Source: Escherichia coli (GTDB lineage: Bacteria > Pseudomonadota > Gammaproteobacteria > Enterobacterales > Enterobacteriaceae). Taken from it: a stretch of DNA of 64,000 bases. The DNA lies in the NCBI RefSeq assembly GCF_050320075.1, contig NZ_CP190022.1. One strand, 5' to 3'. Both the position numbers and the translations under genes were made by a program. Of the stretch, positions 1 through 31,902 are shown one piece after another (within the stretch, counting starts at the first letter, position 1; each line of letters starts with the position of its first letter). The notes beneath the pieces were generated by a model. The model was not told the origin of the DNA. It did no database searches and saw nothing but the letters and a program-made list of their open reading frames with translations.

Positions 1-873
1 GTGGCGGCCCTGAACCAGACCTCATTTACTGAAAGCACATACCGTCAGGTAAAGAACCCGAATCCGGTATTCACACCCCGTGAAGGTGCCGGGACGCTGA
101 AGTTCTGCGAAAAACTGATGGAAAAGGCCGTGGGCTTCACCTCCCGTTTTGATTTTGCCGCGCATGTGGCGTATGCCCGTTCGCGCGGCCTGCGCCGGCG
201 TATGCCGCCGGTGCTGCGCCGCCGGGCGATTGATGCGCTGCTGCAGGGGCTGTGTTTCCACTATGACCCGCTGGCCAACCGCGTGCAGTGCTCCATCACC
301 ACGCTGGCCATTGAGTGCGGACTGGCGACGGAGTCTGAGGCCGGGAAACTCTCCATCACCCGTGCCACCCGTGCCCTGAAGTTCCTGGCTGAGCTGGGGC
401 TGATAACCTACCAGACGGAATACGACCCGACAATTGGCTGTAATATCCCGACCGACATCACGTTCACGCCGGCACTGTTTGCCTCACTCGATATCTCAGA
501 AGAGGCAGTGGCTTCCGCACGCCGCAGCCGCGTGGAATGGGAAAACAGGCTGCGCAAAAAGCAGGGGCTGGATGCGCTGGGTATGGATGAACTGATAGCG
601 AAAGCCTGGCGTTTTGTGCGCGAGCGTTTCCGCAGTTATCAGGCAGAGCTTAAGTCCCACGGCATGAAACGTGCCCGTGCGCGCCGCGATGCAGGCAGGA
701 CCCGTCAGGACATTGTCACCCTGGTGAAACGGCAGCTGACACGTGAAATCGCGGAAGGGCGTTTCCGGGGAAGCCTGGAGGCCGTGAAGCGCGAAATCGA
801 CCGTCGCGTGAAGGAACGCATGATAATGTCGCGGAACAACAACTACACACGGCTGGCCACAGCCTCACCCTGA
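1..873 (+). CDS. repA: Replication initiator RepA (IncFII-family RepA1/RepZ type), 5'-partial at window edge
   Basis: ORF runs from window start to TGA at 871-873; translation ([33 protein letters not shown]...[13 protein letters not shown]) matches the IncFII RepA family as I remember it; true start lies upstream of the window. Confidence 0.9.
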
Positions 874-949: not shown

Positions 950-1300
950 AGCACAGCACACAAAAAACAGCCTCATTATCTGCCTTCCGGCTCGCCTTGC
1001 TCCCCCTGTTTTTCACGCAAAACAGGTATCACAGACGGGGAATTCTGTTTATCCACATTTAACTGCAAGGGACTTCTCCGTAAGGTTACAACCGTTCATG
1101 CTATAAAGCGCCAGCCGCAGGCGTTACAGGGTGCAATGTTTCTTTTAAACCCCAGTAATGTATTTCCTTTAAACTACTTAATTACTTCCATTTAAAAAAA
1201 AGACCTATTCAGTGCCTGTCCTGTGGACAGACAAATATGCACCTCCCACGCTAACGCGCGGGCCCCGAACCTCACCGTTCTGGAACCACAAAAAAAAGAC
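950..1300. other. Putative vegetative origin (oriR) downstream of repA
   Basis: Non-coding stretch after repA with a consensus DnaA box TTATCCACA at 1049-1057 followed by an AT-rich segment (about 1140-1200); position matches IncFII-type ori; boundaries approximate. Confidence 0.45.
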
Positions 1301-1776
1301 ATCAGGAATAAAAACACCACACAAACGCAGCACCGTGCCCACCCCTCATAACTGAAAAGCGAGGCCGCCCCCGCCCGAAGGGCGGGAACAACATCGCTTT
1401 TAATTATGAATGTTGTAACTAAACATCTTCATCGCTGTTAGTCTTCTGGCTGGAAGTCCTCAGTACACGCTCGTAAGCGGCCCTCACGGCCCGCTAACGC
1501 GGAGATACGCCCCGACTTCGGGTAAACCCTCGTCAGGACCACTCCGACCGCGCACAGAAGCTCTCTCATGGCTGAAAGCGGGTATGGTCTGGCAGGGCTG
1601 GGGATGGGTAAGGTGAAATCTATCAATCCGTACCGGCTGACGCCGGGCTTCGGCGGTTTTACTCCGTATATCATATGAAACAACGGAGTGCCGCCTTCCA
1701 TGCCGCTGACGCGGCATTAAAAAGATGCTAAAATTGCAACATTTTCTATATAAATTCAATTAATTACCTAAGCAAG

Positions 1777-2262
1777 GTGAGACTTTTGGAAGAAATGGGC
1801 GCGGAACCCCTTTATCTGACAAATATAATTGAAGCAATAAGTAGGCTAATTATCGTCGTTAACAACAAAGTTATTTTCTCTTTAGATTTCAACATAACGA
1901 TAAAATTCAAAATAGCGAGAGCCACCACCCCCCACTCAAAAAAATTATCTGTTATCAGTTCCACATTAAATCCCTTCTATAATCAAATAAACTTCACAAT
2001 CACCGCACATCAGATTAGCGCCCCATATAACGATTACGTAAAAATATTTATCATTCCAACAGCCAGCATAATGGGGTTCCAAGCCGGAAACCTAGATTTT
2101 TCCGCGACCAGTAACGGCGTGGGTTGTCACATAAAGGGCTGCGTTTGGGAAACGTACAATATTGTACGGTTGCGCTATTGCGGTAGGGTATACTCTATTG
2201 CGATAGGCAATCCTGTTCAAAAAATAGGCTTGCCGTACAATAATTATCTATATCCAAACTGA
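1777..2262 (+). CDS. Hypothetical protein (AT-rich, Ile/Asn-rich; GTG start in track, ATG at 1795)
   Basis: 161-codon ORF in an AT-rich block with no competing ORF on the other strand; no recognisable family; weak RBS. Confidence 0.3.
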   Translation: MRLLEEMGAEPLYLTNIIEAISRLIIVVNNKVIFSLDFNITIKFKIARATTPHSKKLSVISSTLNPFYNQINFTITAHQISAPYNDYVKIFIIPTASIMGFQAGNLDFSATSNGVGCHIKGCVWETYNIVRLRYCGRVYSIAIGNPVQKIGLPYNNYLYPN

Positions 2263-2272
2263 CCCCTTTATA

Positions 2273-2595: not shown

Positions 2596-3210
2596 CTATC
2601 GATGGTTGATTGCGGCGAGCACATCCTCTGTCTCTTTCATCCTGGCGTTATAACGCTGCGTGTGTTTTTCAAGTTTTGCCTGCGCATGCAGCGCTTCTTC
2701 TTCCGTTACAGTTCCATGAACTTTGCCATCCAGACCATAACGCGGCGTACCTGCGACTGATATACGCTGCAGATATTTGTAACCGCCAGTAATCATTCTT
2801 ACAGCACAATTCCATTCTTTTACAGTTAGTCCACACTCAGGACTGGCCGAAATAAAAGCCATGACATCCTTTGAGATGCCTATTTTAAATGCATGATATC
2901 CCCCCTCTTCAGCCCGTAACTGAGGGAATGTTTTTTTAACACAGTCCAGACTGTGTCGGATAAACTCATGATTCCATCTATTGTTCTTCTTTTTTTTCTT
3001 CTTCTTACGTCCTGTTTTTTTCTGTTGTTCCGGGGAACCGGCCACTGTGGCTGGTATTTCAGGAGGTAATGAGTCGGTTTTAAATTCCATTACTGGCGCT
3101 GGTTTTATATCATCAGGAACAGCCTGTACGGCATCATCCTGGTGAAAAAGAATTCGTCTTTTTTTCTTAATAATAACAACAGGTGACGGTTTCTTTGTGA
3201 CACTGCCCAT
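2596..3210 (-). CDS. Hypothetical protein with an internal poly-lysine tract (about 204 aa from ATG at 3210; track ORF extends to GTG at 3246)
   Basis: ORF 2596-3246 in track; ATG at 3210 preferred because GAGGTG sits 6-7 nt upstream; product has a K-rich run encoded by a poly-purine tract and a C-terminal globular part I cannot place. Confidence 0.5.
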   Translation of the reverse strand: MGSVTKKPSPVVIIKKKRRILFHQDDAVQAVPDDIKPAPVMEFKTDSLPPEIPATVAGSPEQQKKTGRKKKKKKKNNRWNHEFIRHSLDCVKKTFPQLRAEEGGYHAFKIGISKDVMAFISASPECGLTVKEWNCAVRMITGGYKYLQRISVAGTPRYGLDGKVHGTVTEEEALHAQAKLEKHTQRYNARMKETEDVLAAINHR

Positions 3211-3309
3211 ATACACACCTCTGCGTATCGTTAATCTGTAATTCACGACATACAGATAGTATATATCTAAGTCAGCAAAGTCACCAACAGAATAATGATG
3301 ATATTTATT

Positions 3310-8736: not shown

Positions 8737-10695
8737 ATGTCAGTTACAGAGTCTAAGACAAAAACGGAGCGTAAATCCAGCCGTAAACCTGCAAAAACGC
8801 AGGAAACTGCACTGTCTGCCCTGCTGGCGCAGACGGAGGAAGTGAGCGTGCCGCTGGATTCACTGATTAAATCACCGCTGAATGTGCGCACGGTGCCGTA
8901 TTCTGCGGAGTCCGTCAGTGAACTGGCTGATTCCATTAAGGGAGTCGGCCTGCTGCAGAATCTGGTTGTTCATGCCCTGCCAGGTGACCGTTACGGTGTC
9001 GCCGCAGGTGGTCGCCGACTGGCAGCACTCAACATGCTGGCAGAGCGTGACATCATTCAGGCTGACTGGCCTGTCCGCGTGAAAATTATTCCGCAGGAGC
9101 TGGCGACGGCTGCATCGATGACCGAGAACGGTCATCGTCGGGATATGCACCCTGCCGAACAGATTGCCGGATTCCGCGCAATGGCGCAGGAAGGCAAAAC
9201 ACCTGCGCAAATCGGTGATTTGCTGGGTTATTCGCCTCGCCACGTTCAGCGAATGCTGAAACTGGCAGACCTTGCGCCTGTCATTCTCGATGCGCTGGCA
9301 GAAGACCGCATCACCACCGAACACTGTCAGGCGCTGGCGCTGGAGAACGACACCGCGCGTCAGGTGCAGGTGTTTGAAGCCGCCTGCCAGTCAGGATGGG
9401 GCGGTAAACCGGATGTGCGGGTTATCCGCAACCTGATTACCGAAAGTGAAGTGGCGGTGGCGGGGAACAGTAAATTCCGCTTCGTGGGGGCTGATGCCTT
9501 CTCGCCAGACGAACTGCGCACCGATTTGTTCAGCGATGACGGGGACGGTTATGTCGACCGCGTGGCGCTCGATGCCGCCCTGCTGGAAAAACTCCAGGCT
9601 GTCGCTGAACACCTTCGGGAAGCCGAAGGCTGGGAATGGTGCACCGGACGTATGGAGCCTGTCGGTGAGTGCCGTGAGGATGCCGGAACATACCGCAGCC
9701 TGCCGGAGCCGGAAGCGGTGCTGACGGAGGCGGAAGAAGAACGCCTGAACGAACTGATGGCACGTTACGACGCGCCGGAAAATCAGTGTGAGGAATCCGA
9801 CCTGCTGGAAGCAGAAATGAAGCTGATGCGCTGCATGGCGAAGGTCAGGGCGTGGACGCCGGAGATGCGTGCCGGAAGTGGCGTGGTGGTGTCCTGGCGT
9901 TATGGAAACGTATGTGTCCAGCGTGGTGTGCAGTTGCGCAGTGAGGATGACGTGGCTGACGACGCTGACCGCACGGAACAGGTGCAGGAGAAAGCGTCAG
10001 TGGAGGAAATCAGTCTGCCACTGCTGACGAAAATGTCTTCCGAACGCACGCTGGCAGTCCAGGCGGCACTGATGCAGCAACCGGACAAATCCCTGACACT
10101 GCTGGCATGGACGCTCTGCCTGAATGTGTTTGGCAGCGGAGCGTACAGTAAACCAGCACAAATCAGCCTGGAATGTAAACATTATTCGCTGACCAGCGAT
10201 GCGCCGTCAGGGAAGGAAGGTGCCGCATTCATGGCGCTGATTGCAGAAAAAGCCCGTCTTGCGGCCCTGTTACCGGAGGGATGGTCACGGGACATGACGA
10301 CATTCCTTTCACTCAGTCAGGAGGTGCTGTTATCCCTGCTCAGTTTCTGCACCGCGTGCAGCATCCACGGCGTTCAGACCCGCGAGTGTGGTCACACGTC
10401 ACGCAGCCCGCTGGACACGCTGGAGAGCGCCATCGGTTTTCACATGCGCGACTGGTGGCAGCCGACAAAAGCAAACTTCTTCGGACACCTGAAAAAGCCG
10501 CAGATTATCGCAGCCCTGAATGAGGCAGGATTGTCCGGTGCCGCACGGGACGCGGAGAAGATGAAGAAAGGCGATGCGGCTGAACATGCAGAGTTCCATA
10601 TGAAAGACAACCGCTGGGTGCCTGGCTGGATGTGTGCACCACGTCCACAGACGGATACCACTGAACGCACTGATAACCTGGCTGATGCCGCCTGA
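8737..10695 (+). CDS. ParB-like nuclease-domain protein of the leading region (652 aa)
   Basis: N-terminal ParB/Srx-type domain (VPLDSLIKSPLNVRTV...LLQNLVVHALPGDRYGVAAGGRRLAAL) with a helix-turn-helix segment; AAAGGAGA RBS; conserved position between ssb and psiB. Confidence 0.8.
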   Translation: MSVTESKTKTERKSSRKPAKTQETALSALLAQTEEVSVPLDSLIKSPLNVRTVPYSAESVSELADSIKGVGLLQNLVVHALPGDRYGVAAGGRRLAALNMLAERDIIQADWPVRVKIIPQELATAASMTENGHRRDMHPAEQIAGFRAMAQEGKTPAQIGDLLGYSPRHVQRMLKLADLAPVILDALAEDRITTEHCQALALENDTARQVQVFEAACQSGWGGKPDVRVIRNLITESEVAVAGNSKFRFVGADAFSPDELRTDLFSDDGDGYVDRVALDAALLEKLQAVAEHLREAEGWEWCTGRMEPVGECREDAGTYRSLPEPEAVLTEAEEERLNELMARYDAPENQCEESDLLEAEMKLMRCMAKVRAWTPEMRAGSGVVVSWRYGNVCVQRGVQLRSEDDVADDADRTEQVQEKASVEEISLPLLTKMSSERTLAVQAALMQQPDKSLTLLAWTLCLNVFGSGAYSKPAQISLECKHYSLTSDAPSGKEGAAFMALIAEKARLAALLPEGWSRDMTTFLSLSQEVLLSLLSFCTACSIHGVQTRECGHTSRSPLDTLESAIGFHMRDWWQPTKANFFGHLKKPQIIAALNEAGLSGAARDAEKMKKGDAAEHAEFHMKDNRWVPGWMCAPRPQTDTTERTDNLADAA

Positions 10696-26542: not shown

Positions 26543-26734
26543 GGGGATTCCTCCATAGATGAATGGATAAATTTCGGGATTAAGTCGGGTGGCATGAATG
26601 CGAATCAGCGCCGGTAATAACCGGACAGGAATGAGTTCAACAGGACATTTTCACAGAGAAGAGCGTGGGAGACAGGTACAAAAAAACCGACTGGTGAGGC
26701 CGGTTTTTTTGCGATTCCGGGGTGGAGTTGGTGG

Positions 26735-26766
26735 CTCTGACCGGAGGAAGTCTCTTTTCAACTAAC
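26735..26766 (+). repeat. Direct repeat A (about 32 bp, CTCTG-CCGGAGGAAGTCTCTTTTCA-CTAAC)
   Basis: Repeated with two mismatches at 26969-27000, 234 bp downstream. Confidence 0.8.
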
Positions 26767-31424: not shown

Positions 31425-31608
31425 AGTATTTCCTTCCAGGTCATTATTACTTCCAGATTTAACATGATGTCTGTAACCATAAAATAATGAACGTGTTCCG
31501 GGAATCCTTGCCGTGTAGTTTCCCGTAAAAATACTGTTGTGCATTACATGTCATTAGGTGGAAACCGATTGTGGCAGACTGAAAATCGATTAGAATAGCG
31601 GCGGGCGC

Positions 31609-31902
31609 TTGAGGCTGTATGCTGAAAGCGTTTTGTGGACGGCATGCAGCAGAAAGCCCCAGGCGATTTTTTTATCAATCAACCCAGGGCCCACTGTAAT
31701 GCCTCAACAACATTATAGTAGCCCGATGACGGCCGAAAGGCAATGGAGGGGCTGCGATGCCACAACGAACGTTTTTAATAATGTTAATCGTCGTCTGTGT
31801 GACGATACTGTGTTTTGTCTGGATGGTGAGGGATTCGCTTTGCGGATTTCGTATCGAGCAGGGAAATACAGTGCTTGTGGCAACGTTAGCCTACGAAGTT
31901 AA
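31609..31902 (+). CDS. pndC: Overlapping translational-coupling reading frame of the hok-family module (mok/PndC-like)
   Basis: 97-codon ORF overlapping the toxin ORF in another frame, as in hok/mok and pndA/pndC. Confidence 0.55.
   Translation: MRLYAESVLWTACSRKPQAIFLSINPGPTVMPQQHYSSPMTAERQWRGCDATTNVFNNVNRRLCDDTVFCLDGEGFALRISYRAGKYSACGNVSLRS

Follow-up and report, generated by a model that had tools for sequence, protein, structure and literature searches.

What is the function of the hairpin-dense block that lies just beyond the replication origin of this Escherichia coli plasmid? The original prediction, made on a 64 000-nucleotide stretch of DNA (hereafter the window), had offered two possibilities: a site of primosome assembly or single-strand initiation (ssi) at which the lagging strand is primed, or a replication terminus. 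We consider that positions 1241–1717 very probably form a replication module, consisting of a Ter site and a G-site, located 3' of oriR in IncFII-type and I-complex plasmids. Such an arrangement is already known from plasmids R1 and R100, and is in this respect ordinary though strongly conserved.

The structured module downstream of oriR

The left edge of the window is occupied by repA (1–873, plus strand), a 290-amino-acid open reading frame encoding an IncFII-family initiator with 88% amino acid identity to RepA1 of R100, and bearing the annotation 'incFII family plasmid replication initiator RepA' in the closest plasmid. It is followed by oriR, placed approximately at 1040–1228 from the sequence, the GC profile and the minimal oriR of R1, which Masai et al. 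reportedly delimited in 1983 to 188 bp. This interval contains a DnaA box (TTATCCACA, 1049–1057) and an AT-rich region (~1140–1205), and the oriR region is 87.6% identical to the origin region of R100. The module itself (1241–1717, ~475 bp) comes next, giving the same order of repA, oriR, Ter, structured block and leading-strand start as in R1 and R100/NR1.

Folding of 1330–1720 as single-stranded DNA gave −79.3 kcal/mol for the plus strand (shuffles −60.4 ± 3.9; z −4.8; 0/100 as good) and −82.3 kcal/mol for the minus strand (shuffles −62.5; z −4.2; none as good), with hairpins at 1476–1495, 1500–1546 (enclosing 1511–1537), 1633–1646, 1652–1695 and 1700–1717. A hairpin-dense block directly 3' of the origin had been predicted, and is what we observed: the palindromes are present at these positions, and both strands fold beyond their shuffles. 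Of the two checks that had been suggested, single-strand structure prediction thus returned z-scores well below zero on either strand, and comparison with IncFII-type replicons identified both a Ter site and a G4-type signal. The description of the block as GC-rich holds relative to its flanks (GC 0.49–0.64 vs 0.36–0.38 to the left, in the AT-rich origin, and 0.32–0.36 to the right) but not in absolute terms, and the conserved unit (1241–1717) is wider than the proposed 1330–1700.

The region had also been said to hold no plausible gene, with which the coding analysis agrees. No Pfam family was found for the mechanically called open reading frames (87 and 91 amino acids on the minus strand; 36 amino acids on the plus strand), and R100 carries a 1-nt deletion within both of the minus-strand frames, i.e. 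a frameshifting indel with respect to the window. Rfam gave no match in the region, either at the gathering threshold on the whole window or at E ≤ 1 on 1200–1800. Some database records nevertheless annotate a 'hypothetical protein' over it. Elsewhere in the window, Rfam matched the sok antitoxin RNA (31603–31759, plus strand, 123.7 bits) and the AgrB antisense RNA (26678–26765, minus strand, 52.8 bits), both typical plasmid maintenance or leading-region features.

The module is widely distributed, with 1200–1717 common to more than 5000 plasmid records and similarity stopping sharply at 1717, where homology with R100 likewise ends. In the alignment with R100, a diverged segment spans approximately 1255–1345, while 1441–1570 and 1571–1717 are 96–97% identical. 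Module positions 1241–1717 (477 nt) are also 93.9% identical to 1857–2330 of the IncI1 plasmid ColIb-P9, despite the fact that RepZ of ColIb-P9 shares only 24% local identity with the RepA of the window and that the two origin cores are unrelated. This near-identity in spite of unrelated initiators and origins indicates a ~475-bp cassette present on two replicon families, and by sequence comparison the module appears to be a cassette that moves between replicon families with nearly unrelated initiators; beyond the equivalent of 1717, ColIb-P9 continues like R100 and the window diverges. Being near-identical in IncFII-type and I-complex replicons, the cassette is of little use for telling replicon types apart. 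The closest database plasmid is typed as IncK2/Z and has an I-type transfer system, fitting IncZ replicons, which we take to join I-complex features to an IncFII-like RepA, and we regard the carrier of the module as an IncFII-family, IncZ-like replicon.

Conservation was followed further in 31 loci encoding RepA relatives, taken from one-genome-per-species assemblies. Where oriR is only ~70–75% identical, block A (1466–1556, described below) retains 84–90% identity, and the segment comprising a terminator-like hairpin and the Ter site 80–93%. L004, L007 and L010 are enterobacterial IncFII replicons on contigs of assemblies labelled Streptomyces morookaense, Lachnospiraceae and Candidatus Nanosynbacter, and over block A the identity of L004 to the window and to R100 is ~98%; their occurrence in these assemblies is probably due to contamination or mis-binning.

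The structure, and not just the sequence, is maintained. In an alignment of 29 sequences (A2), which are related to one another but come from diverged replicons, 85.1% of cells were paired over the whole structure vs ~38% when partners were slid by 1–3 columns, and 29 pairs changed on both sides vs 12.8 ± 2.1 in shuffles (0/500 reached the observed number). Compensatory changes were found in helices H1, H2 and the inner helix of block A, and in helices B2 (CG 19/TA 3; CG 15/GC 5) and B3 (several pair types) of block B (1633–1717). Wobble pairs gave too few informative cells to assign the strand of the two blocks. A lack of conserved structure and variability among close relatives had been named beforehand as grounds for abandoning the prediction; instead, compensatory changes run across the 29 diverged replicons.

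Immediately after the module, 1718–2270 is AT-rich (GC ~0.33) and common only to the closest relative. Within it lie a 161-amino-acid open reading frame with a GTG start (1777–2262), for which Pfam gave no family, and a terminator-like hairpin on the minus strand (1936–1914).

The Ter site and the adjacent hairpin

The proposal of a replication terminus found a counterpart in a perfect Tus-type Ter site, ATTATGAATGTTGTAACTAAACA (1403–1425, plus strand), which matches the consensus exactly, corresponds to terRR of R1 and is a predicted site for Tus. Its core GTTGTAACTA (positions 10–19 of the site) lies at 1412–1421 and the wider consensus GNRNGTTGTAACKA is matched exactly at 1408–1421, the sole exact match in the 64 kb (0.02 expected). 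G6 and positions 8–21 are identical to those of TerA and TerB, and the G–C pair at position 6 is present (G at 1408); C6 reportedly flips into Tus and locks the complex, as described by Mulcair et al. in 2006. The site thus has the same 23 bp and the same polarity logic as TerA–J of E. coli. On the chromosome, two opposed groups of Ter sites trap two converging forks, whereas in the window a single Ter, ~180 bp from the plasmid origin, would end a unidirectional round.

Polarity was calibrated on TerB of MG1655, which lies in plus orientation just upstream of tus and arrests the clockwise fork, i.e. that moving toward increasing coordinates. Since the Ter of the window has the same strand sense as TerB, it is predicted to arrest forks travelling from left to right, arriving from repA and oriR. 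The window and 26 of 28 fetched loci have a plus-oriented Ter ~60–65 bp before block A, with no such site in L018 and L029 and a larger distance in L006; R100 and the window agree in the orientation of the right Ter and in its spacing to block A. As a recent review describes for R1, terRL and terRR are situated after the minimal origin and before the point where the leading strand starts; terRL halts the counter-clockwise fork almost at once, the clockwise fork circles until it meets terRR, and rolling circles and multimers build up when Tus is missing (PMC10331603).

Ter scans of 29 loci detected a minus-oriented Ter ~190 bp upstream of block A (~130 bp to the left of the right Ter) in nearly all of them, R100 included. 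Over these scans and ColIb-P9, this left Ter was absent from the window, from its closest relative (L001, plasmid pA16EC0070-1), from L013 and from ColIb-P9. The corresponding position in the window (1278–1300, minus strand), when compared with L002:45040–45100, holds only a degenerate remnant of terRL with ~5/10 core bases by eye. R100 therefore differs from the window in having terRL, and 1255–1345 is of a different sequence type in the two plasmids, whereas ColIb-P9 shares with the window both the single plus-oriented Ter and the missing left one. With no left Ter, Tus would not stand in the way of any short leftward synthesis, so that the window plasmid would stop a returning fork but not a short counter-clockwise one. 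The presence of the right Ter alone in the lineage of the window and in ColIb-P9 suggests that plasmids can do without a block to the short counter-clockwise fork.

A further Ter-like sequence within oriR (1079–1101, minus strand; GGTTGTAACCTTA) agrees at 8/10 core bases but was rejected, its position 6 being A and not G. Every IncFII-type locus anchored on an exact DnaA box carries this sequence unchanged in the core of its origin, and it is probably part of the origin or of a RepA-binding region rather than a Ter site.

The palindrome put forward as an example of the clustered palindromes, CGCCCGAAGGGCG (1372–1384), turned out to belong to neither the Ter site nor the priming signal. It forms the tip of a separate GC-rich inverted repeat with 22-nt arms (1355–1376/1380–1401) flanked by an A-run and a T-run. 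As RNA, the minus strand of 1355–1401 folds at −42.1 kcal/mol (z −7.3) into a near-perfect stem with a three-base UUC loop and a U-run, whereas the plus strand reaches −28.8 kcal/mol with a large internal loop. Mid-stem cells carrying C·A on the plus strand (equivalent to G·U or G·T on the minus strand) number 91 vs 21 of the opposite kind, and the inner stem shows compensatory changes between GC and CG (17/8 and 13/12). A terminator scan flagged the minus strand, with 13 pairs (9 GC) followed by CTCGCTTTTC; the GC stem with a T/U run close by that marks Rho-independent terminators is thus present on this strand, while the plus strand has no clean U-tract straight after the GC stem, which counts against the terminator reading. 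In R100-type plasmids the hairpin has a Ter site on either side; here it directly abuts the Ter. Genes to the right of the module, including a ProQ/FinO-family gene (2596–3246), are transcribed leftward toward the origin, and we regard the hairpin as a putative intrinsic terminator that probably halts mainly leftward transcription before the origin, shielding the origin and Ter region.

A candidate primase signal on the minus strand

The rest of the module resembles the complementary-strand origins of the phages G4, alpha3 and St-1. Primase of E. coli starts at 5'-CTG-3', and the minus strand carries this triplet at 1595–1593, its G being conserved in 29/29 sequences and its C and T each in 28/29, with variable flanks. 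From sequence logic, the primer is predicted to start with A at 1594 on the minus strand and to grow rightward. Around the triplet, the minus strand presents a pyrimidine-rich run, then CTGC[C/T/A]A[G/A][A/G]CC and then an A-run, a flank that resembles CTGCAAAGCC of G4, at the annotated G4 primer start, and CTGCTAAGCC of alpha3 and St-1 (the fuller primer-start sequences compared were CCCTACTGCAAAGCCAAAA for G4 and CCCTCCTGCTAAGCCCAAAAA for alpha3 and St-1). Identity with alpha3 reaches 10/10 in L001 and 16/16 in L033, that of the window with G4 is 8/10, and L005, L016 and L020 carry the very CTGCAAAGC found in G4. A similarity search against phages with the whole of 1330–1720 gave chance matches only, which confines the likeness to G4-type origins to short motifs.

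The position of the triplet is consistent with that of the R1 start, and the signal is likely to coincide with the mapped G-site of R100. Some 366 bp separate the triplet from the inferred right end of oriR, close to the distance of 380–400 bp downstream of oriR at which Masai and Arai in 1989 and Bernander et al. in 1992 reportedly placed the R1 G-site. The order of oriR, Ter and CTG also fits the R1 layout, with the leading-strand template assigned from Ter polarity. On this assignment the predicted lagging-strand priming is not upheld, as the signal would sit on the leading-strand template of a single rightward fork. Two other triplets were considered as starts and rejected: a minus-strand CTG at 1463–1461 (TACTG, as in G4) is not conserved in the family, and neither is a plus-strand CTG at 1572–1574, which is CTT in most relatives.

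On the template, the CTG is preceded on its 5' side by a pyrimidine-rich unstructured spacer of 37 nt (1596–1632, minus strand) and then by block B (1633–1717, minus strand), for which folds and covariation delineate three hairpins: B1 (1633–1646, with an alternative CGCCG/CGGCG pairing at 1641–1655), B2 (1652–1656/1691–1695, with an inner helix at 1661–1667/1683–1689) and B3 (1700–1717). Stable hairpins 5' of the start are thereby present on the template, as in G4, where stem-loops III, II and I are followed by CTG; the layout of block B matches this. The spacer includes GTACGGATTGATAG (1633–1620), which bears a modest likeness, judged by eye, to the phage-conserved GTACGGAGATAC. Block B shows no strand asymmetry in folding, which counts against the strand assignment.

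On the template, block A (1466–1556, minus strand) follows the primer start on its 3' side. With CTAACGCGGAGATACGCC and CCACTCCGA invariant, it is conserved better than any other part of the module and better than oriR. It consists of H1 (1476–1495, with a conserved C·C mismatch), H3 (1500–1504/1542–1546) and H2 (1511–1516/1532–1537, with an inner helix at 1520–1522/1527–1529). Its minus strand folds more stably than the plus strand in 29/29 loci, by a mean of 5.6 kcal/mol, although these loci are related and the bias is largely inherited; in the window, z was −2.19 for the minus strand vs −0.48 for the plus strand. This asymmetry places block A on the same strand as the CTG, and we treat it as part of the G-site region. 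We consider it doubtful, if conceivable, that block A is instead a distinct single-stranded element of the leading-strand template that goes beyond the classical G-site, a reading suggested by its being more conserved than origin and initiator, lacking a phage counterpart and being exchanged as a cassette. Block A could dock or position primase or keep SSB off the start site, and it could also help the initiating helicase past the adjacent Tus–Ter complex.

Among the alternatives, the one that survives best assigns block A to the plus strand, as a second primase signal priming leftward synthesis, whether of the first lagging strand or of a counter-clockwise fork; two back-to-back initiation signals would result, like ssiA and ssiB of RSF1010. 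The plus strand of block A does contain at 1500–1509 an invariant CGGAGATAC that matches a motif of the G4, alpha3 and St-1 origins (identical in the comparisons at L003:3945–3955, L036 and L037), although the conserved CTG start is on the other strand. It is followed after ~62 nt, in the window (at 1572), R100 and ColIb-P9, by CTGAAAGC, which resembles CTGCAAAGC of G4, and a counter-clockwise fork has been described for R1 (PMC10331603). The CTG of this second motif is, however, not conserved in position, being mostly CTT and absent from at least two members (L016 and L020), and folding of block A on the plus strand does not exceed that of shuffles in the window (z −0.48) and is less stable than that of the complement in 29/29 loci. 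We judge such a signal, and with it the back-to-back arrangement, to be unlikely.

Far less probable is a phiX174-type primosome assembly site, i.e. a hairpin recognized by PriA (n') that loads DnaB for lagging-strand priming; a primosome-assembly site was the first alternative of the original prediction. Hairpin-rich single strands beside an origin do have this appearance, PriA sites have to our knowledge no sequence consensus, and the likeness found here is to the primase-only G4 class, in the CTG, the G4/alpha3-like flank and the hairpins 5' of it. R1 is also said to be primed by primase alone, according to Masai and Arai in 1989. R1-derived vector replicons are annotated with an 'ssiA' element, glossed in the R1 vector paper as 'primosome assembly site' (PMC10989972). 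On account of the resemblance to the phage G4 oric and of the R1/R100 literature, we favour a G-site over a PriA primosome site; the ssi part of the prediction thus stands, as a probable G4-type signal at ~1466–1717, and its primosome part does not. Equally improbable is that the hairpins are only terminators, generic palindromes, structured RNA or a small gene, with no role in replication: 1355–1401 does look like a terminator and a 'hypothetical protein' is annotated in some records, but no T-run follows H1, H2 or B3, Rfam (E ≤ 1) and Pfam gave no match, R100 has its frameshifting indel, the module stands at a constant place and in a constant orientation behind the origin in two families of replicons whose initiators are nearly unrelated, and a perfect Ter site lies within the module.

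Read as a Ter site followed by a G-site, the region can confidently receive the annotation 'Ter site + G-type ssi (leading-strand start)'; in genome records it has no annotation or appears as a 'hypothetical protein'.

Proposed replication round and related systems

In R1, RepA and host DnaA open oriR and the helicase is loaded. For the window plasmid, we propose that duplex opening would proceed rightward from oriR until the minus strand folds into blocks A and B, with the CTG exposed between them. Host DnaG, needing no PriA primosome, could then prime at the CTG (A1594), and the primer would be extended rightward by DNA polymerase III as the leading strand, which is the direction of the single productive fork implied by the polarity of Ter. 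After circling the plasmid, this fork would re-enter through repA and oriR and be arrested by Tus at 1403–1425, ~170 bp before it meets the 5' end of the strand that it began, and in this way strand displacement, rolling-circle over-replication and multimers would be avoided. One point against the scheme is that the helicase, on its way from oriR to the G-site, would have to cross the Ter in its blocking orientation; the same is true of R1.

In ColIb-P9, the initiator (RepZ) and origin core differ and the ori has no similarity to that of the window, and an origin-proximal ssi signal of ColIb-P9 was reportedly described by Tanaka et al. in 1991 (in Plasmid, volume 25, page 125). In the phages G4, alpha3 and St-1, oric is read by primase alone, and the same is predicted for the plasmid signal. 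The phage and plasmid templates have in common the hairpins, a pyrimidine-rich run, the 5'-CTG-3' and a flank of the form CTGC[A/T]AAGCC. They share no overall similarity, however: the 37-nt spacer of the plasmid stands in place of stem-loop I, and the phage origins have nothing comparable to the large block A 3' of the start.

The ssiA and ssiB signals of the IncQ plasmid RSF1010 are also hairpin priming signals at a plasmid origin, but they are two inverted signals of 40 nt, read by the plasmid's own primase RepB' and not by DnaG, and have no sequence relation to the module. Their CCGAAGG mini-hairpin motif (PMC13037366) occurs in the window at 1375–1381, within the terminator-like hairpin and not in the priming signal.

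A comparison with the F plasmid (L039) found no similarity between the module and the ssiA of F located upstream of repE. Near 40.69 kb, F does retain a degenerate remnant of block A (39 nt, 85% identical). Positions 10611–10728 of L039 correspond to 2193–2269 and 1464–1502 of the window, a 77-nt piece 82% identical to 2193–2269 immediately preceding the remnant, so that two pieces lying ~700 nt apart in the window (2193–2269 and block A) are adjacent in F.
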